A DNA stretch of 64,000 nt from an uncultured virus (IMG/VR IMGVR_UViG_3300044653_000122). Lineage: Duplodnaviria; Heunggongvirae; Uroviricota; Caudoviricetes. Below are positions 893 through 57,936 of this stretch, in pieces; within the stretch, counting starts at the first letter, position 1, and each line of letters opens with the position of its first letter. A model generated the notes under the pieces. The model saw nothing but the letters and a program-made list of their open reading frames with translations, ran no database searches and was not told the origin of the DNA. The stretch lies in IMG/VR virus record IMGVR_UViG_3300044653_000122. One strand, 5' to 3'. The position numbers and the translations under genes were made by a program.

Positions 893-3373
893 TCAGTCAG
901 CCCCTTTCAGGTTGCAGACGGGGTACAAGCGGTGGGCGACCCGTGCGATGTTCTCAGACTCCAGAACCCCAAGAACGGAGTCCAAATCCTTGTAAACGTG
1001 CGCGCATTCGTCCAACGGAATGTGGCGGTGGTTGGAGACGATGCCCTCGATCTGGACGCCGTCGAACGTCCTCTTGACCGTGTTCATTTCCTCGTCGATG
1101 GCTTCCTGCCTGTGTTCCAGCTTCCGCTTGGCCTCCCCGCGGGCCATGATGCGCCCGCTCCCGTGGTTGACGGAGCACGCGGTCTTGTAGGCCCCCGCCT
1201 GACCGAAGAGGATGGCCGCACCCTCGTACATCGAGCCCGGGATGAGGCACGGATGGCCCGTCTTCTCCCACTGGGTACCAGCGAGGTCCGGGTGCCCGGC
1301 CGGGAACGCCCTCGTGGCGCCCTTCCTGTGGACGAAGCCCTTCTTGGTCGTCCCATCGGGTAGAACGAGAGTCTCCTCCTGGACGAGGTTGTGGCTGATC
1401 TCGTAGTAGACGTTGACATCCGCCTGGAAGATGTCCCGGGTCGCCGCCCGCACGCCGTCCACGATGATGTGACGGTTGGCCACGGCGAAGTTCGCCGCCG
1501 AGTTGTGGTGAGCCCAATACTCCTTGCCGAGGGGCTCGTCAGCACGGAGCCAGGAGTCGTCTCGGCGGTTCGAGGGCAGGCCACGGAGCTTAGCTCCGGC
1601 GTGGAAGAAGTAATCAGCCGTCTGCCAGCCATACCCACGAGAGCCACAGTGGACCATGATATAGACTTTGCCCGTGTCGCGGTCGACCTGCATCTCCACG
1701 AAATGATTGCCCCCGCCGACTGATCCAAGCTGGCCATTGACGCTCTTGTACGCCTTGTCGATCTTGGTGAGGTCGGTCGTCTCGGGGACGGGGATGTACT
1801 GGCGCTCACAGAGCTTCGCGTCGACCCCGAGGGCCTTGGCCCCATACCGAAGGATCTCGTCCGTCTTCGACTTGTTGAAAACGGGCATGAGTTCCGGTCG
1901 TGAGTGACCCTTCCCGGTCGCAATACGCTTCTCAACCTCGTTGACCCAGCGACGGCGCTCGTACTTGCTCTTCACGGAGCCTGCGTTGAGATCAGCTTCC
2001 ATGTAGAGGACCCCGCAGTTGTGGACAAATACACCTGCACTGAGTGCGAAGTTTGCGTACTTCTCGACAGTCAGGCAGTAGACATCAGCAGTGCGCTCGA
2101 TGGCGCGCACTGCAACAACCTTGTGGTTGTTGTGTCCAGTTACAATGTGGTGTGAGAGACCCTTCGCGCCAAAACACTCACGTCCACAGTGCGGGCAATT
2201 GAGGACCGTATGCTTCGCTCGAAGAGCTTCGAGTCGAAGCTGACGTTTGCTATTGGGCTTGACGCGGCCTCGATTTCTGATGCCGATGGCACGCGATGTC
2301 GCTCGACCCTTCTCACTCTGGTTGTATTTGACCAGACTGCCCTTGTTCCGCTGGCCGACTCCTGCACGATGATCCTTGTAGCCCCCTCGCGCGTTCACTT
2401 TTTTGTTCGTTTCTGCCATCGAGTTCCTACGGCGCTCGCGAAACGCAGGGTCGGCTTGAAGTCGGGTCATGTTTGCGGATCCCATGGCCGAGTACATCTC
2501 AGGATACAATTTGTGAGCCTTTGCGCCCCACGTCTCACCACGCATCAGCCGCTCTTTCGCCGTCCTTGAATGCAGGAGGAAGTGATCATGCTGATCCATC
2601 TCGACCAGGAAGCGGGGGTCGTCATTTCGCTTGTCCCGGTTCGGGTTGGCTGGGTTGAAGATGTCGTGGTGGACGACACGGGGCCAGATTGGCACGTATC
2701 CGTGAAATTCCCTGAATGAGACCCGGTACATTCTCTCGGTAGAGTTGTCTGCTGGATGCCGGACATTGCAATAACCGTCCTCATACGTTCTATAGAGGGG
2801 CATGAGGGAGGCGCCCTCCATAAGGGCACCAGCTTCACAGTAGGTGCCATCGCGCAACATGAATTCGTGATCTGGCGTAACGCAGATCGTCTTTCCGTTG
2901 TCCAGATCCACTTCCACGAGCTTGGCGTTAGTACGAATCTTGCGTGGACTGTGAGCTTTTCCGGCGGTCACTCGTCCGGCCGGCGTCATCGAATAGACGT
3001 AGAACTCACCCCCCTTGCCGTACTGCTTGACCAGCTCTGTAAAACTCATTTCACGCCCATCAACAAGGGGGACCTCGGTCTCCTCAGTGAAACAGGAGAT
3101 GTCGTAGCCGGACGCGCCCTGGATGATCGTGTCCTCGGTGACGATGACCGATCCGATGGGGACGCCGAAGCCGACATGTGCGTCCGGCATCAGATAGGCG
3201 CCGATCACGCCAGGAAACGAAGCGCCATCCACGATCTGCTTCCAAGCTTTCTCCTCAGAAGAAGCGTACAGGTCGTCTGAAAAGAAGGCGTGGACGTCCA
3301 CCTTCATCTCCCCCGTCTTCGGGAGGACGTAGTGGCCGTCGCTGATTCTCTGGACTGCGTACTTGAAGCTCAT
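893..3373 (-). CDS. rtcB: RtcB RNA 3'-phosphate/5'-OH ligase, intein-containing
   Basis: motifs MPDAHVGFG, GYDIS-C-G, GSVGGGNHFVE, VHCGSRG, HN, HRKGAT, PGSM, NHGSGR, DE..YKD. Confidence 0.95.
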   Translation of the reverse strand: MSFKYAVQRISDGHYVLPKTGEMKVDVHAFFSDDLYASSEEKAWKQIVDGASFPGVIGAYLMPDAHVGFGVPIGSVIVTEDTIIQGASGYDISCFTEETEVPLVDGREMSFTELVKQYGKGGEFYVYSMTPAGRVTAGKAHSPRKIRTNAKLVEVDLDNGKTICVTPDHEFMLRDGTYCEAGALMEGASLMPLYRTYEDGYCNVRHPADNSTERMYRVSFREFHGYVPIWPRVVHHDIFNPANPNRDKRNDDPRFLVEMDQHDHFLLHSRTAKERLMRGETWGAKAHKLYPEMYSAMGSANMTRLQADPAFRERRRNSMAETNKKVNARGGYKDHRAGVGQRNKGSLVKYNQSEKGRATSRAIGIRNRGRVKPNSKRQLRLEALRAKHTVLNCPHCGRECFGAKGLSHHIVTGHNNHKVVAVRAIERTADVYCLTVEKYANFALSAGVFVHNCGVLYMEADLNAGSVKSKYERRRWVNEVEKRIATGKGHSRPELMPVFNKSKTDEILRYGAKALGVDAKLCERQYIPVPETTDLTKIDKAYKSVNGQLGSVGGGNHFVEMQVDRDTGKVYIMVHCGSRGYGWQTADYFFHAGAKLRGLPSNRRDDSWLRADEPLGKEYWAHHNSAANFAVANRHIIVDGVRAATRDIFQADVNVYYEISHNLVQEETLVLPDGTTKKGFVHRKGATRAFPAGHPDLAGTQWEKTGHPCLIPGSMYEGAAILFGQAGAYKTACSVNHGSGRIMARGEAKRKLEHRQEAIDEEMNTVKRTFDGVQIEGIVSNHRHIPLDECAHVYKDLDSVLGVLESENIARVAHRLYPVCNLKGAD
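2018..3094 (-). mobile_element. intein (~359 aa) with internal endonuclease-like region
   Basis: begins CFTEET, block B VTPDHEF, ends VYCLTVEKYANFALSAGVFVHN followed by Cys(+1). Confidence 0.93.
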
Positions 3374-11904: not shown

Positions 11905-12696
11905 TCAGTTCAAGGTGCGTGGAACAGGGAGCCCGTCCCACGTCTTACCATCCAAGATGCGGCCCGCCTGCTTCTTGCCGAGCTTGATCCCATCGGGACC
12001 GAACTCGCCGAACTGCTTGAAGTTGACCGGGATGCCAGCCCTGTCGGCCTGGTCACGCAAGCTGCGGAACCAATCCGTGTTGCTAGGCCGTGCGCCGATG
12101 CCGGACTCACCTCCAAGGATGACCCAGTCGATGTCTTTGAGGTAGGGCCCCAAGTCCACACCACCGAGGAGCGGCTCCATCGAGAGGAACCTGACAACGG
12201 CTGAGGCACCATATCTCGCGAGGAGCGGGATACGGATGTCCGCGTACTTTTGGTTCTCGACCGTGGCACCCAGCCAGATGTTACCAGGCCAAGTGGTCCT
12301 GTCGGGCCACATGAGGCTGAGCAGCTCCCCCAAGTTTTCCGGCCTCTTCGTGAGGAAGAGCCAGTCGAGATTGGGGGTCTTGTCGACGAGCTGTGCGAGC
12401 TTGGCCTTCCAGACCTTGAGGTCGTCTCTGGATTCGCCAACATCTGCCATGCTGGCGCAGAAGACACGCGCCCTCACCCCCTCAGCCTTCGCATCCCTAT
12501 CCCACTTGAGGGGTTCATTCCAGTGTTTGTCGCCAAAAAACCTCCTGGGCGACTTCACCCCCCAGATGGGGAGCTTCTGGCGCACCGTTGCAAAGGTCTC
12601 GGCGTAGCAGTTTTCACATGCCGGGCTCACCCTCGCACACCCCCACCAGGGGTTGAAAGTATGGGTGGTCCAGGAAATGGTTGTGAATCTACCCAT
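11905..12696 (-). CDS. phage Gp37/Gp68 (DUF5131) family protein
   Basis: [50 protein letters not shown]. Confidence 0.9.
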
Positions 12697-13126
12697 GATT
12701 GCGCTCCAAATATTCGGCGGCCGACCTCAAAAGATTGGGATTATCCCCAAGAAGCCCCATACCCACATTACACGAGTTACAGAGCACCCCACGCACCCGC
12801 CCTGTTGCATGATCGTGATCCACGACGAGTTTTTTTGGCTCGCGTTGACACAGTTCACATCGACCCCCGCTGCGAATTAGAAGGGCCCGAAGAGCTTCCA
12901 GTGATAGGCCGTATCGACTAGCGGTGATCGCCAACGATACACAAGCCTTGCAACTCGCCGTACGCCCTTGAGAGCGGGATCGATCGACGGAGAACATGCT
13001 CAGAGGGTGCCAGCCTCGACAACGGAAACAATGTCGAAGACCTAACGACCGTCGGTGACGCCATTCCTCAAGCGAAAGTCCAGTCTTCTTTGCTGCTGAT
13101 TTTTCAACACTAAGGTAGCTGCCCAC
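12689..13126 (-). CDS. endonuclease VII domain protein
   Basis: [28 protein letters not shown]; start uncertain. Confidence 0.85.
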
Positions 13127-13929: not shown

Positions 13930-14517
13930 TCAGCCCGTCGCCTCTGCGGGCACCCAGACCGAACCGGAGAGGTTCATGTACGGGAGCCAGAGCTTCGGGA
14001 CACGATCGAGCGGCCAGATCGGGACCGTCATCGGGAGAGTCTTCGGCCGGAACGGCTTCCGACGCAACTTCATCCCTGCCTGCTCCGGGGTCCTGCCGGC
14101 CTTACGGTCGTTACAGGGGTAGCAGGAGGTGACGATGTTCTCCCAGTCCGTCATCTGACGGACTGAACCCTTCCACTGAATCCGCGGGATCACGTGATCG
14201 TAGTTCAGATCCCTCATCGGGAGCTGACGCCCACAATACTGGCACGTGAAGTTGTCACGCGTGAAGACGTTCACGCGGGAGAACTTGACGCCCTTCTTGT
14301 AGTTGTTCACGCGGGTCGTCAGACGGGCCACGGCCGGGAGTTTGAACTCCATGCTGGGCGTCCTGATGACCTCGTCCCAGGATTCGAGCACGTCGATCTT
14401 CACGGGCTGCGTGTCACCCTTTTGGCGACCGTGCACGTAGAGGAAAGCGCTCTTTTCCCAGGGTACGATCCTGTGGACTGACATCCACGGTGTCAGAAGC
14501 AGTGTGTGGGTCTCCAT
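13930..14517 (-). CDS. HNH endonuclease
   Basis: RDNFTCQYCG, DHVIPR, WENIVTSCYPCNDRKA. Confidence 0.9.
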   Translation of the reverse strand: METHTLLLTPWMSVHRIVPWEKSAFLYVHGRQKGDTQPVKIDVLESWDEVIRTPSMEFKLPAVARLTTRVNNYKKGVKFSRVNVFTRDNFTCQYCGRQLPMRDLNYDHVIPRIQWKGSVRQMTDWENIVTSCYPCNDRKAGRTPEQAGMKLRRKPFRPKTLPMTVPIWPLDRVPKLWLPYMNLSGSVWVPAEATG

Positions 14518-14686: not shown

Positions 14687-14786
14687 TCCTGGGGATGGGG
14701 ATCGAACCCATATGCCTCCCGGCCACAGAGGCTCAGCGCGGGAGCACTGAGCCCGTGTGTGTGTCTTCCTGTTCCACCACCCCAGG
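14687..14786 (-). ncRNA. tRNA-like RNA with elongated anticodon arm
   Basis: acceptor CCTGGGG/CCCCAGG, Leu-like D arm, T arm, inserted GGCTCAG/CTGAGCC helix. Confidence 0.7.
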
Positions 14787-14989: not shown

Positions 14990-15568
14990 TTACCGCGAGC
15001 GCATCTTGATGACTCGCGGAATCTTGTCGAGCGTGCCGAGGATGGCTTCGTTGGCCGCCCGCACCTCAGGGGTCAGGTTCTTCGACACCCGACGATAGAA
15101 CTCGCTCTTCAGCCAGTCGGCGTAGCTCATGTCGCCACGCGTCTTGTTGCACTTGCGGCACGCGGTCACGAGGTTCGCTTCGATCCAGGGCCCGCGCTCC
15201 TCCCAGCGGACCAGATGGTCCACCGTCAGCGGTACCTTGTCGTTGGCGCAGTACCGGCAGACGTACTTGTCGCGCCGGTAGACCGCCCACGAGACGGTGT
15301 TGTCCACCTCGCGGTTGGACTTGCGAAGGATGGCCTTCTGACCGCTGCCGTCGGGGTACGCCTCGACGGGGAGGGTGTCCGTCTGGTTGAGGAACTCCTT
15401 CCAGTCGTCGAGGGTCAGATCGAGCATCTCGACCGGAGCTTGCCTCGCATCGCCCTGGCCTTCGGGGAAGAGGACGCCGTAGACCTTTCCCTTGCCGGCG
15501 TACAGAGCGCCAACCATCGCGATCGAATGGCCTACGTCGAGCAAGTTGATGTCCTTCAGCGAACCCAT
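14990..15568 (-). CDS. HNH endonuclease domain protein
   Basis: RDKYVCRYC, TVDHL, NLVTACRKCNKTRG. Confidence 0.85.
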   Translation of the reverse strand: MGSLKDINLLDVGHSIAMVGALYAGKGKVYGVLFPEGQGDARQAPVEMLDLTLDDWKEFLNQTDTLPVEAYPDGSGQKAILRKSNREVDNTVSWAVYRRDKYVCRYCANDKVPLTVDHLVRWEERGPWIEANLVTACRKCNKTRGDMSYADWLKSEFYRRVSKNLTPEVRAANEAILGTLDKIPRVIKMRSR

Positions 15569-15674
15569 GTGATCCTCATCTTCATCTGGGGGTTGGTGCG
15601 AAGGCGAGGGGTGGGCCGTACAGCCCTCGCAGCCAGACTCCTGCATTGGTCGGCGCCTGAGCCTGTCTTCGCGG

Positions 15675-16014
15675 TGGAGATGCCGGGAATCGAACCCGGG
15701 TCCTAAGAGCATTCCGAACACCCTCATCCACATGCTTGGACGCCGTATCCCCGGCGACTGAGTTCGCGGATTCGGCCGCGACCTAGCCCTCCTGTTCCTC
15801 TCGTCGTAGAGCCCGGTGACCCAGCTCTACGACCAGCCCTGGTGGTTGACGACTCCTTCGCCGCTAGGACGACCCAGCGAGGAATCGGCTTTCAGGCCGC
15901 AGCCTGGAAAGCGTTGTCGTTGTCGTTGGCGACTATGACATACTCGGTTGAACGGGCCGAGCGCCGTTGCATGCGGGCAGTTCTTGTTTCTCCCAGTCGA
16001 AACCTGTCATCCCC
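15675..16014 (-). ncRNA. ssrA: tmRNA, tag peptide ANDNDNAFQAAA* (15892-15930)
   Basis: 5' GGGGATGAC..TTCGAC, 3' GGTTCGATTCCCGGCATCTCCA, G3:U70, resume context ATAGTC-GCC. Confidence 0.95.
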
Positions 16015-22529: not shown

Positions 22530-22589
22530 TGGTGGACCACCGGGGAATCGAACCCCGATCCAACGCTCTATCCATTGAGCTACAGACGC
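22530..22589 (-). pseudogene. chimeric tRNA remnant lacking the anticodon arm
   Basis: Arg-like 5' half joined to Ala-like T arm and CCA; acceptor strands do not pair. Confidence 0.7.
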
Positions 22590-27528: not shown

Positions 27529-27599
27529 TGGAGCCGAAGGGAATCGAACCCTTATTCACGCACTGCCAGCGCGTTGTCCTCCCGTTGAACGACGGCCCC
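27529..27599 (-). tRNA. tRNA-Ala(GGC)
   Basis: ACGCG-CTGGCAG-TGCGT, G3:U70. Confidence 0.88.
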
Positions 27600-28250
27600 A
27601 AATGTCAAAACCTTGTCCCAATCTTCTGCCACGTCCTCTCGGATCGTGATCACAGTCTTATTTTTGTCTGTCTCATCCCACGAAAACACATAGGCTGTGT
27701 CCGTGTACAGGCTGTACCCCACCAAGAAATCGAAGTCTTTCTTAGAGTAGCGTTGGCGACGACTATGACCCTCTGTTCGAGTCAAGCTCAGGTGCGGCAA
27801 TCCGTGACGACCTGCGGCCGAAGCCCATTTCACTTGGATTTTGGCTAGATCGCCTGATGGGACTTGAACGAGCCAATCAGTACGGCCGCCATCGAACACA
27901 GGCGCCATAACGTGCAAACCGTACAAGGTACATCGGAAAAGAATGGCCGCTTCGGCGATATTACCCTTCTCCGAAGGAGTGAGTTCTCGTTCAGTCAGCA
28001 TCTCGTGGTACTTGGACCGTTCCCCCCGATCCTTCCGGGCACCGACGCGAGGTTTCGTGACACCAGCTTGGTGCTTCGCGTGCAGCTCCTCTTCCGAGAG
28101 AGGATGGTTCAACAACCACCGGCTGAGGGAACTCTTCGAGATGCCAGTACGGTCTTGGATCTCTCGGAAAGAAAGCCTTTCCTCGACCCGCAGACGCACA
28201 GCCTCTAGCTGCCCTTTTTCGTTCGGAACACCGCGCATAGTACGAACCAT
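27552..28250 (-). CDS. HTH + PD-(D/E)XK homing-type endonuclease
   Basis: LSFREI..GISKSSLSRW; KGNIAE..D..KIQVK..Y..DFD. Confidence 0.8.
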   Translation of the reverse strand: MVRTMRGVPNEKGQLEAVRLRVEERLSFREIQDRTGISKSSLSRWLLNHPLSEEELHAKHQAGVTKPRVGARKDRGERSKYHEMLTERELTPSEKGNIAEAAILFRCTLYGLHVMAPVFDGGRTDWLVQVPSGDLAKIQVKWASAAGRHGLPHLSLTRTEGHSRRQRYSKKDFDFLVGYSLYTDTAYVFSWDETDKNKTVITIREDVAEDWDKVLTFGAVVQREDNALAVRE

Positions 28251-30436: not shown

Positions 30437-31603
30437 TCACTCGACGCTGACGATGACGCCCGCGCCGACCGTCTTGCTACCCTCGCGGACTGCGAACCGC
30501 ATGCCGGGCTCCAAGCCGATGGGCACCATCAACTCCAACGAGACCTGTGCGTGGTCCCCAGGGTTGATCATCTTGTTCTCGCCGAAGCCCGTCACCGTGC
30601 CGGTGACATCGGTCGTGCCGAAGAAGAACTGGGGCTTGTATCCCGGGAAGATTGGCGTGTGCCGACCACCCTCCTCCTTCGGAATCACGAACAGCTCGGC
30701 CAGGGCCTTGGCGTGAGGTTGCACGGAGCCAGGGGCGATGAGCACCTGACCACGAACCACCTCGTCCCGGGCGACGCCGCGGAGGAGCAGACCGCAGTTC
30801 TCACCCGCACGTGCCTCAGGCTGGTCCTTGTGGAACATCTGGATGCTCGTGCACACGACCTGACGGGGTTTGGAGTCCGCCTCCACGAGCCCGACGATCT
30901 CGACGGTGGACCCCGCCTTGAGGACCCCACGCTCGATACGCCCAGTGACGACGGTGCCACGACCAGGGATCGTGTGCACGCCCTCGATGGGCATCATGAA
31001 CGGCGCGTCGTAGTCCCGCTTCGGGTCGGGGAAGTGCCGGTCCATCGTGGCGACCAGCTCTGCGATGCAGGCCCCATCCTCTGCGGGGTTCTTGAGCGCC
31101 TTGAGCGCCGAACCCTTGACCACCGGGCAGTCCTTGTAACCGTGCAGCTCCAGGCGCTCGACCGTCTCCATGACGACCAGCTCCAACAGCTCGGGATCGG
31201 AGATGTCCACCTTGTTGATGAACACGACGATCCTCTGAACCCCGACCTGGCGAGCGAGCAGGATGTGTTCCTTCGTCTGGTACTGGGGTCCCTGGCTACC
31301 GTCGACCAAAAGCACGGCTCCGTCCATCTGGGCGGCCCCCGTGATCATGTTCTTGATGTAGTCAGCGTGCCCAGGGCAATCGATGTGGGCGTAGTGCCTC
31401 GTGGCACTCTCGTACTCGACGTGGGACACGTTGATGGTCACCGTCTTCGACTCGTCGCGGACCGTGCCACCCTTGGCGATGTCCGCATAGGACTTGACCT
31501 TCGCGAGCTTCGAGTACGCTTGTACGGCCAGGAGGGCTGCCGTCAGCGTGGTCTTGCCGTGGTCGACGTGCCCGATCGTGCCCACATTTACGTGCGTTTT
31601 CAC
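30437..31603 (-). CDS. tuf: elongation factor Tu
   Basis: [48 protein letters not shown]. Confidence 0.97.
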
Positions 31604-32078: not shown

Positions 32079-32733
32079 CTATCCACGGTCTTCTCCTTTC
32101 TTTGGAGTGTTATGGCTAAGGGCGAGCACCACACGGTCGACCCCAATGGCCCACCCGATGCCCTCTTTGTAGCGGCCCCCACCAGCAATTTGCTTTTGGG
32201 CGCCGAGCGTTTCAACTTCGGCCTCGAACCCGTCCTCGACGTAGTACGTGAGGCCACGCTTGACCGCAGGGTTGAACTTGTAGGGAACCTGGAGACGATC
32301 GAGGCAAGCTCGGAGCGAGCCCTCAGCCTCCTCGGTGTCCCCCTTGCCCTGACCCCCTAGGATCTCGACGCCGAACTGCGTGAACTCCCGGTACCGGCCC
32401 GCCTGTGGGCGCTCGTAGCGGTAGCAGCGCTGGCAGTAGAAGATTTGGTAGGGCCGCTTGACGCTCCGGCTCCACTCGTCGTTCCAGAGGCGTTGGATGA
32501 GTGCGGTTGCCTCAGGGATGAAGACACACCGGACGATCACCCTTGTCCCGGAAGGCCCACATCTGGTTGACGATCTCAGGACCCGCCTTCTGTACGAAGG
32601 TCTCCTGATCCCACAGGGACGGGAGGATGACCTCCTCGAACCCACGGTCCGTGAGCGTCTCCCGAATCGTTGACGTGACCTTGGTGAAGAGCTTCGCTTC
32701 GGTGCCAGTGATGACGCGGGTGCCACGGATCAT
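32079..32733 (-). CDS. minimal HisRS-like catalytic domain, split by a +1 frameshift near 32515
   Basis: RGT..GFEEV..P; PEAT; YRYERPQAGRYREFTQFGVE; RGLTYY; GGGRY; GWAIGVDR. Confidence 0.85.
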
Positions 32734-33407: not shown

Positions 33408-33425
33408 AACGGGGTATTACACCGG

Positions 33426-33498
33426 CACCCCTGGCCCGACTCGAACGGGCGACATTTCGTTTAGGAAACGAACGCTCTATCCACTGAGCTACAGGGGC
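33426..33498 (-). tRNA. tRNA-Arg(CCT)
   Basis: TTCGT-TTCCTAA-ACGAA. Confidence 0.9.
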
Positions 33499-33872: not shown

Positions 33873-34006
33873 TGGAGGCGGGTCTTGGAGTCGAACCAAG
33901 CAAGCTTGTAAGCACGCGGAGTTTGCGGGGCCCCCGTGGAGGCCCGAGTGATGCGCGCTGTCGATTTCTCTTATGAGGAGAAGCGGGACCCACGTCCCTA
34001 CCCGCC
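33873..34006 (-). ncRNA. module RNA 2: tRNA shell (CAT loop, CCA) with module in variable arm
   Basis: GGCGGGT/ACCCGCC-T-CCA; TTCTC-CTCATAA-GAGAA. Confidence 0.8.
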
Positions 34007-34015
34007 ATGATATTT

Positions 34016-34151
34016 GAAGACACCCGAGGTGCAACCCTGGTCACGCCTTACGGCGAGCAGTGGGGATCGAACCCACATCCTTCGGTTTCACGTACCAACG
34101 CTCATCCAGTTGAGCTATGCTTGTTAGGGCTACGAGGTGCGGGGTGCCTTC
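34016..34151 (-). ncRNA. module RNA 3: module encloses D/anticodon(GTG)/T arms
   Basis: GAAGGCACCCCGC...CTCGGGTGTCTTC terminal helix. Confidence 0.8.
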
Positions 34152-34153
34152 AG

Positions 34154-34282
34154 AGCCGGATCCAGGAGTCGAACCTGGCGAGCTTGTTAGCGCGCTTTGG
34201 GGCGGGGTCCCCGTGGAGACCCGAGTAGTGCACGCTGTGGTTTTACCTGGGAAAGGTAGCGGGACCCACGTCCCTATCCGGC
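34154..34282 (-). ncRNA. module RNA 4: tRNA shell (TCC-like loop) with module in variable arm
   Basis: GCCGGAT/ATCCGGC acceptor, T arm. Confidence 0.8.
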
Positions 34283-34323
34283 ATGATCTCGAACTTGTCC
34301 TACTTCGAAGGCGAGGACTTGCC

Positions 34324-34438
34324 TGGGGGCGGACTCTGGAGTCGAACCAGAGGCTTGTGTGCACGTTGGGGTGCGGGGCCCCCGTAGAGGCCCGAGGAAA
34401 ACGCGCAGTGAAAGTGGGACCCACGTCCCAAGTCCGCC
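34324..34438 (-). ncRNA. module RNA 5: tRNA shell with CCA, module replaces the anticodon arm
   Basis: GGCGGAC/GTCCGCC-C-CCA. Confidence 0.8.
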
Positions 34439-34447
34439 GAAATGTTA

Positions 34448-34573
34448 GGCGACGCCCGAGTTGCAACCCTGGTGTGTGGTAGCAGCAGGAATCGAACCTG
34501 CCCTGTCTCGTTATCAGCGAGATGCTCAACCAGTGAGCTTTGCTTGTGAGGGTAGCGGGGGCGGGGCGCCGCC
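34448..34573 (-). ncRNA. module RNA 6: module encloses D/anticodon(GAT)/T arms
   Basis: GGCGGCGCCCCGC...CTCGGGCGTCGCC. Confidence 0.8.
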
Positions 34574-34575
34574 AG

Positions 34576-34708
34576 CGCCGGATGAAGGAGTCGAACCTTC
34601 CTAGCTTGTAAGCACGCGTGGTTGCGGGGTCCCCTAAGAGACCCGAGTGGTGCGCGCTGGGAATGGCTTCCTTAACAGGGAAGTGACCTCCCCGAGGTCT
34701 AATCCGGC
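34576..34708 (-). ncRNA. module RNA 7: tRNA shell (GTT loop) with module in variable arm
   Basis: GCCGGAT/ATCCGGC; CTTCC-CTGTTAA-GGAAG. Confidence 0.8.
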
Positions 34709-34717
34709 ATGATGTTA

Positions 34718-34844
34718 GGAGACGCCCGAGATGCAACCCTGTTGTGTGTGCAGCGGGTGTCGAAACCCGCAACCCACGGCTTGAGAGGCCGTTGCTCTAC
34801 CATTGAGCTATGCTTGTGAGGGCTGCGAGGGGCGGGGCGCCTCC
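34718..34844 (-). ncRNA. module RNA 8: module encloses D/anticodon(CTC)/T arms
   Basis: GGAGGCGCCCCGC...CTCGGGCGTCTCC. Confidence 0.8.
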
Positions 34845-34846
34845 AG

Positions 34847-34980
34847 GGCCGACTGTGGGAATCGAACCCACTATGCTTGTATGCGCGTTGTGGGGCGGGG
34901 TCCCCGTGGAGACCCGAGATGTACGCGCAGGTGAATTGCTTCCTGTTCAGGGAAGTGCCCAACCGGAGGGCTTAGTCGGC
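34847..34980 (-). ncRNA. module RNA 9: tRNA shell (GAA loop) with module in variable arm
   Basis: GCCGACT/AGTCGGC; CTTCC-CTGAACA-GGAAG. Confidence 0.8.
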
Positions 34981-35017
34981 GAAACGTACGAGACTGGAAC
35001 TACTGAGAGAAGATTTC

Positions 35018-35163
35018 GGTCACGCCCGAGATTGACGCCTGTGTGCTGTATGTTCACTTTCGATGTGAATGCCTTACCGTTAGGCTACATCTCCCGAAGG
35101 AGGTGATGGGACTCGAACCCACATTTTGTGCTTGTAAGGCGTCGTGCTTGGCGGGGCGCGACC
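35018..35163 (-). ncRNA. module RNA 10: module encloses a permuted tRNA (T arm, TTCG-capped acceptor, D arm, anticodon arm)
   Basis: GGTCGCGCCCCGC...CTCGGGCGTGACC. Confidence 0.8.
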
Positions 35164-35166
35164 TAG

Positions 35167-35311
35167 CTGGGGGTCTAGGATTCGAACCTAGAAGAGCTTG
35201 TTTGAACCGCTTTTTGGCGGGGTCCCCGTGGAGACCCGAGATGCGATCCAGGGTTTTGCTTTCGCAACGTGGTTTGGAATCACGCTGGCCTGCCATCGGC
35301 CAATACCCCCA
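35167..35311 (-). ncRNA. module RNA 11: tRNA shell (CCA loop) with module in variable arm
   Basis: TGGGGGT/ACCCCCA acceptor, T arm. Confidence 0.8.
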
Positions 35312-37757: not shown

Positions 37758-39683
37758 TTACGCCGCCTTCGACGACACGGGCACGGAAGCCCAGGCCGGC
37801 TTCTTGAGCAGGTCCGTCTTGAGGATCGTGTCCACGAGGGTCACGCGCGGAACTGCCACCTGCCCGGTGGCCTTGCCGACCGGAGTCGCCGCGATCAGGG
37901 CGCGGATCGTACGCGGGATGGCGTACGGGTCCGCTGCACCTCCGGTTGCGACCTGACCGAAGATACGCTGATCGACCGAGAAGCACGGGATGCCGAGGAC
38001 AGCAGCCGCGTTGGGGACGCACTTGTAGTTCTCGCCCTGGAGTTCGAGGAACCCGAACGCCACGGGGTTGAGCTTCGAGTCGCGGATGGCCGCCACGAGA
38101 CCGTGAGTCTCGCGCTGACCACCGTCACCAACCCAGACCATGATGCAGTCCTCGTCCGGTGCCGGCTTACGCCGGTCCGTGAGCGCCGAACGAACACCCG
38201 CGCTGTGGTCGGTCCCACCCCCTGCGGCGATACCGCGGAAGGCGTTCTCGACGCCAGCCTTGCTCGCGTGCTTGATCTCAACGACACGGCCCGCCGTGTT
38301 GAAGACCACCGTCACCGTCTTGTCCAGGGGGAAGCCCTGGAGGAACTGCGCGATGTAGGTCATCGACGCCTGGATCGACGCGCTCATCGAGCCCGAGATG
38401 TCGATGATGAAGTACACGAAAAGGCCCTTGATGACCTCCGCCACCTGCTTCTGGAGCGCGGTGTCGGCAGCCTGCTGGAGCTTATCCTTGCCCTCCTTCG
38501 ACTTCATGCGGAGCGCGATGTTGGCCGCCCGCATGTTCTCGGCTTCCCGAAGAGCCTTGTCGAGGCGCTCACGGTAGGTCTGGACCTGGAGCAGACCCAG
38601 CTCTTCGATCGTCGGAGCCAGGTTGATCATCTCCGCGTTGGAGATGCACCCCGACTCGATCGCGGCACCCATGATCGCCCTCGTGAGGCCGACACCCTTC
38701 GGCAACATGGCCGAGAGGCGGTTCCACTTCGGGCGGTCCTTGACGACACGTTCGCAGACCTGCTCCTCGGTCAGGCCGTCCCACGTCTCCGCGGCAGCGA
38801 CCTTCTCGTTGAGAGCGAGCTTGCGACGGCCGTCGCTGGACTGCACCTGCTTCCACCGAAGCGTCTGGTAGAACTTCGGCGTGAGCGGGACATACCGAGC
38901 CTGGCAGGCGAGGGAGATGACACTCCAACGCGCACCCGACTTGATGAGCCCTTCGAGCAGCTTGGGGTTACGCTCGCGGTAGGCGAGCCAGCGGTTCACC
39001 GCCTTGGGCCAGCGACCCAGCTCCGGGCGCCGAGCGGACTTGCCAAAGCCCAGCTCGTGGTTGATCTTGGCGATCTGCGGCAGCGAGAGCAGCTCGCGAG
39101 CGCGGACCAGGAGCTTGGCGTTGAAGCCGCCCTTCTCCTTGTCGAGAAGGAACATGGCCTCGCCGACCTCACGGAAGTCGTCGTCGAAGAACGCAAGCTT
39201 GCCGTTCTCCACGACCTCCTGCCCGCAGCGGCTCTGCACGAGCATGAACGCAGCGAGCACGACCTTGAGGTCCCGGTGCTCCTGCCCGAATGCGAACGAA
39301 GCCCAACGGGCCGCGAACTCGTTGTCCAGCTTCCAGACCTCGGCGACCTGCTGGTAGAGCCAGACCGCGACCTCCGTGAAGAAGCCGGGCTTGCGATACT
39401 CGCCGACGCGAGTCGTACCGTTCATGATCGTCTTCTTGTCCGCCGCGAACTCGCCGGCCTTGACCCAGGCCGTCTTCTTGCCGACCTTGCTTCCGAGGTA
39501 AAGGACACGCTTACGCGCGTCTCCCTCGCCCTCGTACTTGGCCTTCGCGAAGGCCCACTTGACGCCGACCACCGAGGTCGGGTCCGGCGTGACCATGCCG
39601 GGGCGGTTGTGAACGCAGTGGTCCACGTAAGGCGTGAGCGACGCGATGATGCGCTCCGCCGGTCCAAGATTCTCGTTCGCCAT
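37758..39683 (-). CDS. Ro60/TROVE-like helical domain + vWA protein
   Basis: long helical region then IIDISGSM, GGTD, VGDG; start placed at MANENL after GGTGTA motif. Confidence 0.65.
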   Translation of the reverse strand: MANENLGPAERIIASLTPYVDHCVHNRPGMVTPDPTSVVGVKWAFAKAKYEGEGDARKRVLYLGSKVGKKTAWVKAGEFAADKKTIMNGTTRVGEYRKPGFFTEVAVWLYQQVAEVWKLDNEFAARWASFAFGQEHRDLKVVLAAFMLVQSRCGQEVVENGKLAFFDDDFREVGEAMFLLDKEKGGFNAKLLVRARELLSLPQIAKINHELGFGKSARRPELGRWPKAVNRWLAYRERNPKLLEGLIKSGARWSVISLACQARYVPLTPKFYQTLRWKQVQSSDGRRKLALNEKVAAAETWDGLTEEQVCERVVKDRPKWNRLSAMLPKGVGLTRAIMGAAIESGCISNAEMINLAPTIEELGLLQVQTYRERLDKALREAENMRAANIALRMKSKEGKDKLQQAADTALQKQVAEVIKGLFVYFIIDISGSMSASIQASMTYIAQFLQGFPLDKTVTVVFNTAGRVVEIKHASKAGVENAFRGIAAGGGTDHSAGVRSALTDRRKPAPDEDCIMVWVGDGGQRETHGLVAAIRDSKLNPVAFGFLELQGENYKCVPNAAAVLGIPCFSVDQRIFGQVATGGAADPYAIPRTIRALIAATPVGKATGQVAVPRVTLVDTILKTDLLKKPAWASVPVSSKAA

Positions 39684-39801
39684 GTTCTGATCCGATCTCG
39701 GCGACACACCTTCGCCGTTTCCTAGTAATACACCGCCGTGGTGCGGGATCCCCGAAGAGATCCGAGATGGCGATGCAGAGGTCCCGAGGAAGCCGGGAAC
39801 C

Positions 39802-39878
39802 TGGTCGGGGAGGGGGGATTCGAACCCCCAACAACGAGCACCCAAAGCTCGTGCACTACCGGGTTGTGCTACCCCCCG
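39802..39878 (-). tRNA. tRNA-Pro(TGG)
   Basis: CGAGC-TTTGGGT-GCTCG, CCA. Confidence 0.92.
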
Positions 39879-39905
39879 AAGTTCTTCTTGTGGACCGAGC
39901 AGGAC

Positions 39906-40175
39906 ATGGATCCGCTCACGCCCCGCGTCGTCCGCCGCTACCTTGCCTTCAAACACCAGCCGAAGGAAACCAAGGAACACAAAGTGGAACGGGTACGGGA
40001 CCTCATCCGCCAGCACACCGGCCTCTCGAAGGGTCAGGCGGAAGCCATCGCCGACGCCCATGTCCGAGGACGTGAGGTCGAGCGGTTGGCCATCCAGAAG
40101 TCCTGGCCCATCGAGCACGGGGCCATCAAAGGCCCGTCCGGTACGCTGGAGCTGTCGAAGCTACCGAAAGATTGA
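39906..40175 (+). CDS. hypothetical protein (MDPLTPRVVRRY N-terminus)
   Basis: shared N-terminal motif; TCTTGT upstream. Confidence 0.65.
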   Translation: MDPLTPRVVRRYLAFKHQPKETKEHKVERVRDLIRQHTGLSKGQAEAIADAHVRGREVERLAIQKSWPIEHGAIKGPSGTLELSKLPKD

Positions 40176-40176
40176 A

Positions 40177-40362
40177 GGATCGCGCCCGAGGTTGTGCAGC
40201 AGTTGTGCCTTTTCAGGACAGCTTCCATTTGCTGTTGCGTCTTCCATTCCGCCACTGGCCCATTTTGGGGGTCCGAAGACCCTTGTGGGCCAGCCTGGAC
40301 TCGAACCAGGAATCCCCTTGCGGGGTTGCTTGTGTGCTTCACAGGATTGCGGGGCGCGATCC
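40177..40362 (-). ncRNA. module RNA 12: module encloses a permuted tRNA
   Basis: GGATCGCGCCCCGC..ACAAGC..T arm..CTGGCCC/GGGCCAG..D arm..CTCGGGCGCGATCC. Confidence 0.8.
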
Positions 40363-40364
40363 AG

Positions 40365-40438
40365 TAGGCATGGGGGGAGTTGAACCCACGACCTCAGCCT
40401 TATCAGGGCTGCGCTCTAACCAACTGAGCTACATGCCT
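40365..40438 (-). tRNA. tRNA-Ile(GAT)
   Basis: CAGCC-CTGATAA-GGCTG. Confidence 0.92.
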
Positions 40439-40460
40439 GTGTAAACAACCTTTCGGCCAG

Positions 40461-40532
40461 TTGGCGCGAGAGGGATTGAACCTCCGACCTTCCCCGTGTC
40501 AGGGGGATGCTCTACCACTGAGCTACGCGCCA
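40461..40532 (-). tRNA. tRNA-Val(GAC)
   Basis: TCCCC-CTGACAC-GGGGA. Confidence 0.92.
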
Positions 40533-40545
40533 ATGAATATCCGAG

Positions 40546-40618
40546 TGGGCCACGTCGGGCTCGAACCGACGACAACCGCCTTGTAAGGGCAGTGCTCTAC
40601 CAACTGAGCTAGCGGCCC
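40546..40618 (-). tRNA. tRNA-Val(TAC)
   Basis: CTGCC-CTTACAA-GGCGG. Confidence 0.92.
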
Positions 40619-40625
40619 GTTCTTG

Positions 40626-40890
40626 TGGGGTCGGCGGGATTCGAACCCGCGTGGATCTCGCAAAGCTGTCGTTTAGGAAACGCGCTTCCCTCACTTGGCA
40701 GTATCGGCCAGACCCCCATGAGTTACCCCATGGGGCAAGTTCCGGTGCATCCGCAACCTTTAACAGCAATTCGACGAGGTAGAGGTCCACCCGAGCAACA
40801 CCCTGTGGACGTGTGCCTCGTCTACTCCGAGAACCCCCTTGCGGGGTACCGTTCCGTTTTACGATCGCCTATCCGCTAGACTACGACCCC
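40626..40890 (-). ncRNA. 265-nt tRNA-shell RNA with large structured insert
   Basis: GGGGTCG/CGACCCC-A, D arm and T arm; about 190 nt replace the anticodon loop. Confidence 0.75.
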
Positions 40891-40918
40891 AAGATTAAGA
40901 TGCGTCAAGACAACCCGC

Positions 40919-41338
40919 TCAACGCGCATCAGTAGGCCCGAGAGGGTTTGAACCTCCGACTTCCTCCGTGTGAAGGAGGCGCTCTACCGCTGAGCTACAG
41001 GCCTGTGTTTCGAGTTCTTCAGGGACTTCAATTGGAGGGGGTTCCTCCTTTTTCCTCAGAAAGATAAGTCCCTCTCCGTCCACCCAGGTCATTGGGGCGA
41101 TGAAAGCCCCATCAAGGGAGGCCCGGTACGTCGCGCAATTCGCCAAGAACTCGGGAACGCGTGGTACCCTGGGCAGGGGGTCCATTTTGTCCGGCAGGAG
41201 CCCCCACAGCTCGGGAACGAACCAGCAGAGATTATGCCCCTCAGCATCCCGGTGCTTGCGGATGCCCGTACGGAGCTTCACCACCTCCGCGATGAGTGCC
41301 TCACGGTCCATGGCCTCTAGGTCGAGATCCAGCTCCAT
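40919..41338 (-). CDS. hypothetical protein (3' end reads through tRNA-Val)
   Basis: ATG 12 nt after GGTGTA motif. Confidence 0.6.
   Translation of the reverse strand: MELDLDLEAMDREALIAEVVKLRTGIRKHRDAEGHNLCWFVPELWGLLPDKMDPLPRVPRVPEFLANCATYRASLDGAFIAPMTWVDGEGLIFLRKKEEPPPIEVPEELETQACSSAVERLLHTEEVGGSNPLGPTDAR
40933..41004 (-). tRNA. tRNA-Val(CAC)
   Basis: CCTCC-TTCACAC-GGAGG. Confidence 0.9.
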
Positions 41339-41363
41339 GGGTTCTCTTTTTACACCGTGGCGA

Positions 41364-41440
41364 TGGTGCCAACGGCGGGATTCGAACCCGCACTGCCCCG
41401 TGTCTGAAACGGGTTACTCTGCCAGTTGGATTACGTTGGC
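41364..41440 (-). tRNA. tRNA-Leu(CAG), short variable loop
   Basis: CCCGT-TTCAGAC-ACGGG, CCA. Confidence 0.85.
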
Positions 41441-43039: not shown

Positions 43040-43120
43040 CTCCAGGGGCAGGACTCGAACCCACATAAGCTCCGGTAACAGCGGAGTGCACTACCTTGCT
43101 TGCGCTTGTGCTACCCTGGA
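43040..43120 (-). tRNA. tRNA-Asn(GTT), enlarged D loop
   Basis: CTCCG-CTGTTAC-CGGAG. Confidence 0.82.
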
Positions 43121-57378: not shown

Positions 57379-57936
57379 ATGTCTCTACTCCAAGTGCGCC
57401 ACTTTCCGGACCCGATCCTTAAGAAGGTCTGCGAGCCCGTGCATGAGATCGACGACGGCCTGCGCATGTTCCTCGTGGACATGGCCGAGACGATGATCGC
57501 CCAGAAGGGGGTAGGTCTCGCGGCCCCTCAAGTTGGCCGCTCGCAGCGGTTCTTCGTGGTCGACATCTGGTGGCCCTCCGACCAGGACGACAAGACCCTG
57601 ATTTTCATCAATCCGAAGATCACAGCGTACGAAGGCTCACAGCGTGGGCTGGAGGGGTGTCTTTCGATCCCCGGCGTCTTCGAGCACGTCACCCGGGCAC
57701 AGAAGATTCGTGTGGTGGCGCAGGATATCAACAGCCAGGTCTTCGAGCTGGACGCAGAGGGATTTCTTGCGGTCGCCATTCAACACGAGTTCGACCACCT
57801 GAACGGCGTGCTGACGTTTGACCGTCTCGGCCCCCTCGCGAGAAAGATGGCCACGAAGAAGTACGATCAGGCCAGCGAGGCACGTGCCCGGGACCGTAAG
57901 GGTGGTCCTCAGCTCTCGGTTGCGAAGAGACCCTAG
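57379..57936 (+). CDS. def: peptide deformylase
   Basis: GVGLAAPQVG, EGCLSIP, QHEFDHLNG. Confidence 0.96.
   Translation: MSLLQVRHFPDPILKKVCEPVHEIDDGLRMFLVDMAETMIAQKGVGLAAPQVGRSQRFFVVDIWWPSDQDDKTLIFINPKITAYEGSQRGLEGCLSIPGVFEHVTRAQKIRVVAQDINSQVFELDAEGFLAVAIQHEFDHLNGVLTFDRLGPLARKMATKKYDQASEARARDRKGGPQLSVAKRP

Follow-up and report, generated by a model that had tools for sequence, protein, structure and literature searches.

A 265-nt gene on the minus strand of a phage genome begins and ends as a tRNA and carries a long folded sequence in between, which raises the question of what RNA is made from it. The preliminary description of this locus called its architecture tmRNA-like, held that nested helices had replaced the anticodon loop, and left the choice between an unknown ncRNA class and an unusual intron. 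The DNA analysed here (the window, 64,000 nt) looks like part of a huge phage; its source is soil and its GC content is roughly 58%. Between 5.5 and 43.7 kb, the minus strand holds 54-55 tRNA genes and one tmRNA (ARAGORN; confirmed by Rfam). Interspersed with the tRNAs are genes for an RtcB with an intein, EF-Tu, ribosomal protein L7/L12 and peptide deformylase, together with a HisRS-like fragment, VWA-domain proteins, and HNH, endonuclease VII and PD-(D/E)XK nucleases. Two distant relatives were found in IMG/VR by way of the neighbouring VWA protein (55-57% identity): G001, a complete 398-kb genome with terminal repeats, and G002, a 78-kb fragment. RNA position p corresponds to window position 40891-p, the RNA running from 40890 to 40626.

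The tRNA body and its two inserts

The ends of the gene are those of a tRNA, as the preliminary description had recognised and as both the minus-strand sequence and ARAGORN bear out. The acceptor stem is perfect over 7 bp (GGGGTCG/CGACCCC, 40884-40890 with 40627-40633) and is followed by the discriminator A at 40626. The D arm (40867-40881) has A14, G18G19 and A20, T8 and G26 are present, and the T arm, GCGGG-TTCGAAT-CCCGC at 40634-40650, is preceded by C48; CCA is not encoded in the gene. By arithmetic, any one T arm should have about 0.02 perfect 7-nt complements by chance in the stretch lying 30-420 nt upstream of it.

The anticodon hairpin is flanked by two inserts, and its loop has not been replaced by helices. 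TTCCTAA stands intact at 40673-40679, near the 3′ end of the insert region, with T33, the anticodon CCT (40675-40677) and a purine at position 37. Together with the adjoining stem nucleotides it forms a 14-nt anticodon-arm core, or ‘mini-exon’ (CGTTTCCTAAACGA), that is shared with the resident tRNA-Arg(CCT) and occurs twice in the 64-kb window versus never in 100 shuffles (Table 1). The gene also contains A20, C35 and T36, which are identity elements of ArgRS. Arg tRNAs in this clade have a D arm of the same type, and an unrelated phage tRNA-Arg(TCT) has one of identical sequence.

Run at its default threshold with introns allowed, ARAGORN calls a tRNA-Arg(CCT) that is interrupted by 181 nt. 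Rfam gives no RF00005 match across 40626-40890, where a contiguous anticodon arm is absent; taken with the ARAGORN reading, this means that the gene yields a tRNA only once the 181 nt are removed. It is thus nearly certain that this is a tRNA-Arg(CCU) gene and that a folded sequence of 181 nt, outside the described classes, splits it precisely. Of the two options first offered, the unusual intron is the better, given the 181-nt insert and the shared 14-mer. Two other readings were discarded. In batch mode, ARAGORN proposes a tRNA-Gly(tcc) with a 179-nt intron, in a poorer register whose position 37 is a pyrimidine. A tRNA-like fold of 91 nt inside the gene (RNA 175-265) emerges solely when the ARAGORN threshold is lowered; its acceptor is mismatched and it lacks T33.

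Table 1 Features of the split gene and related genes of the window (RNA numbering runs along the minus strand)
Feature	Window position	Strand	RNA position	Basis or value
RtcB RNA ligase gene, interrupted by an intein	893..3373	-		Pfam RtcB 1.3e-81; Intein_splicing 6.5e-16
True tmRNA	15673-16014			ARAGORN, Rfam
Ordinary, uninterrupted tRNA-Arg(CCT) of the same array	33424..33498	-		ARAGORN
Whole tRNA-shaped gene, 265 nt	40626..40890	-	1-265	ARAGORN with introns, sequence reading
5′ exon: acceptor 5′ strand, T8, Arg-type D arm with A20, G26, first two anticodon-stem nucleotides	40864..40890	-	1-27	
Border hairpin ATCGT-AAAACGGA-ACGGT, spans the 5′ border and contains T27.G42	40848..40865	-	26-43	Pair probability ~0.8
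Insert I1, 181 nt	40683..40863	-	28-208	ARAGORN; no Rfam family at E<=10
CCCC-GCAA-GGGG hairpin, GNRA loop	40835..40846	-	45-56	Pair probability only 0.29-0.46
Extended hairpin, helices 69-75/112-118 and 81-86/101-106	40773..40822	-	69-118	Pair probability 0.99-1.0
9-bp hairpin CCCCATGGG/CTCATGGGG (156-164/169-177)	40714..40735	-	156-177	Pair probability 0.93-1.0
‘Mini-exon’: loop TTCCTAA with 3 and 4 flanking stem nucleotides	40669..40682	-	209-222	Identical to 33457-33470
Insert I2, 13 nt, between anticodon-stem positions 42/43 (stem/variable-loop border)	40656..40668	-	223-235	
3′ exon remainder: last stem nucleotide, variable loop, T arm, acceptor 3′ strand, discriminator A	40626..40655	-	236-265	

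The larger insert, I1, follows the 5′ strand of the anticodon stem (RNA 26-30). Its borders are ambiguous across a CGT repeat, RNA 28-208 and RNA 31-211 being equally valid, and it is placed in that strand between 28/29 and 31/32, a position in the stem that would be uncommon whatever the intron class. The insertion is exact and spared all flanking tRNA nucleotides. Terminal inverted repeats are absent from I1, and neither the window nor G001 or G002 contains another copy of it.

Removing I1 in silico gives an 84-85-nt tRNA-Arg that passes ARAGORN at 110% stringency but still has a mismatched A.C pair at 27:43 and 17 nt in its variable region. When the second, 13-nt insert (I2) is removed as well, the product is a canonical 71-72-nt tRNA-Arg cloverleaf, which passes at 120%; its anticodon stem is perfect over 5-6 bp and its variable loop is short. 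I2 can pair almost completely with I1. Co-adaptation of the two was considered and rejected, with 146 of 500 I2 shuffles folding at least as stably.

Fold of the RNA and the other tRNA-like genes of the island

The whole 265-nt RNA folds at -115.0 kcal/mol (z = -2.94; 1 of 200 shuffles as good). I1 folded alone is also more structured than most shuffles (z = -2.15; 4/200 as good), and RNA 59-235 forms a closed domain that none of 200 shuffles matches (z = -3.10). The most robust part of I1 is the extended hairpin at RNA 69-118. Three of the helices initially drawn, GTCCAC/GTGGAC, CCCCATG/CATGGGG and GCTGT/ACAGC, are indeed part of the minimum-energy fold, with pair probabilities of 0.99-1.0, 0.93-1.0 and 0.84-0.94, respectively, the last of them at RNA 124-129/221-226. 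The fourth, GTAGA..TCTAC, can be drawn at RNA 66-70/107-111 but is an alternative register at the base of the 7-bp helix GACGAGG/CCTCGTC (69-75/112-118).

As modelled, the RNA has two global folds that lie close in energy. The minimum-energy structure combines the border hairpin (26-30/39-43) and the GCAA-capped hairpin with a domain that the helix 59-63/231-235 closes. A rival fold, 1.6 kcal/mol worse at -113.4 kcal/mol, has a 7-bp stem (27-33/227-233) in the anticodon-stem position, and each of the two retains a cloverleaf-like core. The true anticodon stem costs 6.4 kcal/mol when forced and has an ensemble probability of 0.03 in the precursor. The rival fold with stem 27-33/227-233 is the classic cloverleaf that the preliminary description had reported. 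Two drawings of the border hairpin are possible: a P1/guide in group I style, and a mock anticodon arm whose loop has 8 nt.

The split gene is one of several odd genes in its surroundings. The window has at least nine further non-canonical tRNA-like genes, among them a ~130-nt family supported by covariation in 18 of 29 pairs and permuted Y-RNA-like elements (T-arm/acceptor-hairpin/D-arm) at about 40175-40365 and 35000-35160; long-variable-arm tRNA-like genes lie in the same island. Permuted tRNA genes are known in a red alga, and the permuted tRNA-like genes found here would need cutting and rejoining to become tRNAs. Short identities between the split gene and its neighbours, namely ACCCCGCAAGGGG (40314-40326), GGTAACTCA (in an element of G002) and GGGGGT..GGCCGAT (in the element at 35311), were dismissed as being at chance level (E 0.2-1.7).

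Company of this kind is one argument for an RNA that is never spliced, in which the tRNA body would serve as a scaffold for processing and stability, possibly also as a handle for tRNA-binding proteins, while the ~200-nt middle does the work, for example by binding a protein or acting as a decoy. The closed domain of RNA 59-235 and the two near-isoenergetic folds, with a cloverleaf-like core in both, agree with such a role. However, the split gene has no significant sequence or covariance-model similarity to the other tRNA-like families of the island, and no homologue of it was found, whereas the other families are conserved in G001 and G002. The exact anticodon hairpin of a tRNA-Arg would also go unexplained unless it is read or recognised. 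We regard an unspliced, tRNA-shaped ncRNA as unlikely.

Comparison with known RNA classes and introns

Rfam 15, the search scope of which includes group I and group II introns and self-cleaving ribozymes, gave no family over I1 at gathering scores, nor any at E<=10 on a 401-nt or a 212-nt query. The outcome that the preliminary description named as refuting, a hit to an established intron or tmRNA model, did not arise in these searches.

In the prevailing view, the tRNA introns of bacteria and phages belong to the group I ribozymes. They occur in the anticodon loop of bacterial tRNA-Leu(UAA), tRNA-Ile(CAU) and tRNA-Arg(CCU) genes, and a canonical, very small self-splicing intron of this group would account for several features of I1. 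Like those introns, I1 is a structured insert of ~200 nt in the anticodon region, even in the same isoacceptor, and group-I-style borders can be drawn for it: T27 at the end of the 5′ exon pairs with G42 as the U.G border pair, I1 ends with G208, and RNA 36-41 pairs with the first six nucleotides of the 3′ exon (RNA 209-214), giving a continuous guide of 8 bp. GAATT and TAAAG junctions surround the GCTGT helix, and a GNRA hairpin follows the border hairpin. The guide geometry is, however, common among shuffles: a guide of at least 8 bp was found within the first 40 nt of 2254 of 20000 shuffled inserts, and anywhere in 9008 of 20000, and we rejected it as evidence for group I. RF00028 has no match at E<=10 on the 401-nt or 212-nt query, although the same search detects its control genomes; it reports no group I introns in G001 or G002. 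Unlike group I introns, I1 sits in the stem rather than the loop and its strong helices are all nested, and neither the pseudoknotted P3-P7 core nor a G-binding helix can be drawn. At 181 nt, it is also shorter than the smallest group I introns that we know of (~200 nt). A canonical group I intron is therefore very improbable.

Protein-spliced tRNA introns of archaea and eukaryotes offer a different comparison. Archaea have tRNA introns at non-canonical positions and several introns per tRNA, and the phage, for its part, encodes an RtcB ligase nearby. Unlike such introns, I1 has no bulge-helix-bulge: the borders, drawn by hand, form a 1x5 internal loop between two helices in place of the 3-4-3 arrangement. 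No splicing endonuclease or tRNA-intron endonuclease family was found in the ~75 of 200 window ORFs of at least 100 aa that were scanned. The PDDEXK_5 family has been linked to a tRNA-intron homing endonuclease. We know of no bulge-helix-bulge/endonuclease pathway of tRNA splicing in bacterial hosts.

A second tmRNA-like molecule, or a Y-RNA-like one, was suggested by the tRNA-like ends around a long structured middle and by two weak local matches. The tmRNA match (RF00023) reaches 21.3 bits against a cut-off of 47, with only the two ends aligned. Unlike tmRNA, the RNA has G-C at position 3:70 (G3-C70), as had been noted from the start, along with a true D arm and an anticodon hairpin. The earlier remarks that no tag ORF is evident and that a true tmRNA exists elsewhere in the window both hold, ARAGORN in tmRNA mode at a lowered threshold reporting ‘Tag not identified’ for the split gene; the tmRNA-like architecture proposed alongside them is not supported. 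The YrlA Y RNA match (RF02553; 30.9 bits versus 69) runs from the T arm of the gene into the D arm of the next tRNA and, spanning two adjacent tRNAs, is an artefact. There is a likeness to YrlA Y RNAs in the phage context, with RtcB and VWA proteins, and in a tRNA mimic fused to other RNA. Unlike these RNAs, the split gene is not permuted and its acceptor ends are open, and no TROVE/Ro domain was found in the adjacent VWA protein by Pfam, PHROGs and PDB sequence searches. The likelihood of a tmRNA-like or Y-RNA-like molecule is negligible, and this reading is refuted as far as sequence allows.

Relatives, genomic setting and fate of the split gene

Homologues of the insert were sought at several depths. 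A blastn search with the 401-nt query matched 52 of 50,697 phage records, and all listed matches lie at query 312-401, that is, in the T-arm end and the next tRNA-Val, outside I1. BLAST in G001 and G002 found 10 places, nine restricted to the T arm and one a 14-nt match, and the insert in none of them. A single-sequence covariance model of RNA 59-235 scored 222 bits on the window itself and 9.6 bits (E 0.5) on the next match, with nothing in G001 or G002. Five exact or degenerate patterns gave no insert homologue among IMG/VR viral contigs: two returned 0 matches, one an unrelated tRNA-Arg(TCT) and one a single match without a tRNA. The remaining pattern returned at least 119 stretches; a T-loop-like motif lay downstream in 20 of the 120 listed matches, and the actual tRNAs were uninterrupted. 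Among metagenome contigs, a protein scan found 0 relatives in 49 pattern matches, and a 19-mer had five matches, all in unrelated sequence without a tRNA. In a set of one genome per prokaryote species, an 18-mer gave 15 matches, about the chance expectation, none of which extends meaningfully; no Rfam family was present in the 8 of these 15 that were checked. These searches turned up no homologue of the insert, and hence neither covariation nor any sign of selection. The gene as a whole is absent from G001 and G002, and identical copies come solely from the same phage in other samples. In the syntenic relative L002, tRNA-Val(cac) and tRNA-Val(tac) stand 8 nt apart, and the entire split gene is missing.

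The neighbours of the gene in the window are tRNA-Val(cac), 41 nt upstream, and tRNA-Val(tac), 7 nt downstream. A scan of 40300-41400 found no promoter-like sites and no minus-strand terminator-like sites which, with the tight spacing, is consistent with co-transcription. The array also has an ordinary tRNA-Arg(CCT), so the split copy is redundant.

This redundancy opens the possibility of a dead spare copy, a superfluous tRNA-Arg(CCU) gene hit by 181 bp and later by 13 bp, whose relic is still processed from the array or is simply tolerated. The absence of the gene at the syntenic place in L002 fits this account, as do two separate lesions flanking the anticodon hairpin, of which the 13-nt one could be decay, and an insert that belongs to no known intron class. 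I1-I2 pairing is at chance, the guide alignment is not rare, and the 3-nt CGT border repeat could be microhomology or a target duplication. Yet the acceptor, T arm and D arm of this supposed relic are perfect, all nucleotides for tertiary interactions are kept, and its anticodon core matches that of the working copy. The insertion is exact, I1 is more structured than its shuffles, and it has neither terminal inverted repeats nor a second copy in the window, G001 or G002. Death of a spare copy is nearly as good an account as a live intron, and we consider it a serious, if not the likeliest, explanation.

The reading that we lean towards, with less than even confidence, is that I1 is an intron of an undescribed type, probably cleaved out and sealed by the phage RtcB. 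The split gene would be transcribed along with the surrounding tRNA array, and RNase P and 3′ processing would release it by way of the intact acceptor, D and T body. I1 would then be removed as an undescribed kind of intron. Along the likelier route, a protein nuclease would cut at both borders and leave 2′,3′-cyclic phosphate and 5′-OH ends, which the phage’s own RtcB, a candidate sealing enzyme should a nuclease excise the insert, would then join. We prefer this route because no self-splicing core is detectable; in a less likely variant, an undescribed self-splicing reaction would use the border hairpin as its guide. Splicing would thus supply another tRNA-Arg(CCU) besides the resident one, its variable region either retaining the 13 extra nucleotides or free of them.

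A live intron is favoured by the exact insertion, the otherwise pristine tRNA features, the structured insert, the packed array, the presence of RtcB and the nearby tRNA-like genes that call for cutting and rejoining. Against it stand the lack of a homologue, the absence of the gene from L002, the resident tRNA-Arg(CCT), and the failure to find a splicing endonuclease among the scanned ORFs or a bulge-helix-bulge at the borders. The position in the stem, the A.C mismatch and 17-nt variable region left by single excision, the commonness of the guide geometry and the low probability (0.03) of the anticodon stem in the precursor point the same way. In a more specific form of the proposal, I1 would be a live intron of a kind undescribed in bacteria or their viruses: either a tiny self-splicing RNA with a guide hairpin and a non-group-I core, or one substrate of a phage cut-and-rejoin pathway, composed of a nuclease and the intein-bearing RtcB, that also matures the permuted and long-variable-arm genes. 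This more specific form we hold to be decidedly doubtful.

Our literature search found no description of a non-group-I intron in a phage tRNA-Arg gene. We know of a single published report of unclassifiable inserts in the tRNA genes of huge phages, and of no explanation for them. In the parts of that report considered here, over-long tRNA genes of Lak megaphages become normal tRNAs upon removal of an internal stretch, and the inserts, tested against Rfam, are called ‘enigmatic’ without being assigned to a class (Devoto et al. 2019, PMC6784885). That huge phages elsewhere carry tRNA genes with unclassifiable inserts, on the evidence of these parts, speaks for a live intron (PMC6784885). The resemblance, judged from the same parts, extends to a huge phage with a large tRNA set, an over-long tRNA gene, an insert without an Rfam class and a splicing route that is likewise undescribed (PMC6784885). 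The first entry of Table S6 is a 93-nt insert predicted after position 36 (37-129), in a gut genome that is AT-rich at ~26% GC; one Lak insert may itself fold into a tRNA-like shape (PMC6784885). Compared by description only with what those parts report of this example, the present insert differs in its 181 nt, its place in the 5′ strand of the anticodon stem, the second, 13-nt insert and its ~58% GC soil phage.

What the split gene adds is a clean case, with unambiguous exons, a large folded insert, RtcB nearby and rearranged tRNA-like genes adjoining. If spliced, it would reveal either a new ribozyme or protein-based tRNA splicing in a bacterial virus, and a role of phage RtcB beyond repair. 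If not spliced, it would illustrate the decay of spare tRNA genes in phage arrays, or their reuse as scaffolds.

The single RNA run examined (X5) has a contig over 40441-40594, which covers the neighbouring Val tRNAs, and nothing clean over the 265-nt gene; with coverage limited to the neighbours, it is silent on transcription or splicing of the split gene. Contigs from two further DNA runs, X2 and X4, which belong to separate studies, carry the identical gene. This identity confirms the sequence yet supplies no variation for covariation. In one of the two runs, a 16-nt tandem duplication lies directly upstream of the first base of the RNA.

A family of 112–145-nt tRNA-like elements

Six copies of a tRNA-like element of 112–145 nt lie on the minus strand at 33876–35311, none of which was detected by ARAGORN or Rfam. 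The acceptor stem is perfect in every copy, and in all six the D arm is replaced by a short GC hairpin. The anticodon arm is canonical in most copies, with loops carrying GAA, GTT and CAT, and is accompanied by a conserved ‘variable arm’ of ~60 nt with the motifs CTCGG and ACAAGC. Members of the family also occur in two distant relatives, the complete 398-kb genome G001 and the 78-kb fragment G002. Across nine sequences, compensatory changes were found at 18 of the 29 predicted pairs.

Features among and around the tRNA genes, with positions in the window
Feature	Position	Strand	Remarks
tRNA-like family, copy	35167–35311	−	
tRNA-like family, copy	34847–34980	−	
tRNA-like family, copy	34576–34708	−	
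tRNA-like family, copy	34327–34438	−	
tRNA-like family, copy	34154–34282	−	
tRNA-like family, copy	33876–34006	−	
Permuted tRNA-like element	~40175–40365	−	circularly permuted
Permuted tRNA-like element	~35000–35160	−	circularly permuted
Partial tRNA match	34750–34813	−	D, anticodon, T arms
Partial tRNA match	34481–34544	−	D, anticodon, T arms
81-nt tRNA-like gene	43040–43120	−	perfect acceptor stem
tRNA-like stub	22530–22589	−	immediately after tRNA-Arg(ccg)
tRNA, 8-nt anticodon loop	14785–14863	−	ARAGORN
100-nt tRNA-like gene	14687–14786	−	perfect acceptor stem, long internal hairpin
Peptide deformylase	57379–57936	+	
786-aa ORF	37758–40118	−	
HisRS-like fragment	32079–32726	−	215 aa
EF-Tu	30437–31603	−	
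PD-(D/E)XK (PDDEXK_5) nuclease	27552–28250	−	HTH domain; overlaps end of tRNA-Ala(ggc)
HNH nuclease	14990–15733	−	
HNH nuclease	13930–14517	−	
Ribosomal protein L7/L12	13483–13869	−	
Endonuclease VII	12689–13126	−	
RtcB RNA ligase with intein	893–3373	−	Pfam RtcB 1.3e-81, Intein_splicing 6.5e-16

Permuted and partial tRNA-like elements

In the two permuted elements the T arm comes first, followed by the acceptor stem, which ends in a closing loop or hairpin, and then by the D arm together with an anticodon-like arm; all arms are carried by a long basal stem, GGNCGCGCCC.../...GGGCGNGNCC. One possibility is that these elements represent the ~130-nt (112–145-nt) family in permuted form. Their layout also resembles that of the Y RNA YrlA, which contains a tRNA-like module, although the score against that model was only 25.8 bits, whereas the cut-off is 69. 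The partial tRNA matches at 34481–34544 and 34750–34813 score 44.8 and 45.4 bits, respectively, with an acceptor stem of only ~3 bp; they are set between repeated strands of the long stem, alternating with the 130-nt elements.

Other tRNA-like genes and interspersed protein genes

The 100-nt tRNA-like gene has a counterpart retained in G002 (73548–73647). To the tRNA with the enlarged anticodon loop, ARAGORN assigns a four-base ‘anticodon’, aaaa, and no amino acid. The stub has both D and T arms and ends in CCA; it lacks an anticodon arm and a complementary acceptor strand. The 81-nt gene, for which ARAGORN makes no call, is unusual in its long D region and contains the loop CTGTTAC.

The PD-(D/E)XK, two HNH and endonuclease VII genes are free-standing, scattered among the tRNA genes, and are possible homing elements. 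Besides the RtcB ligase, the phage encodes translation proteins, namely EF-Tu, ribosomal protein L7/L12, the HisRS-like fragment and peptide deformylase. The 786-aa ORF crosses tRNA-Pro(tgg) (39802–39878) and a permuted tRNA-like element, so its true start must lie below 39800. Its protein carries a C-terminal VWA domain, preceded by an N-terminal 450 aa matching no known family, and has no TROVE match.

Leader duplication in a second data set

In a 4430-nt contig from X2, a DNA run of another study carrying the identical split tRNA-Arg(CCU) gene, 16 nt of the leader are tandemly duplicated directly upstream of the first base of the 265-nt RNA (40889/40890). The contig is otherwise identical to the window over 40440–41060 (0 differences).
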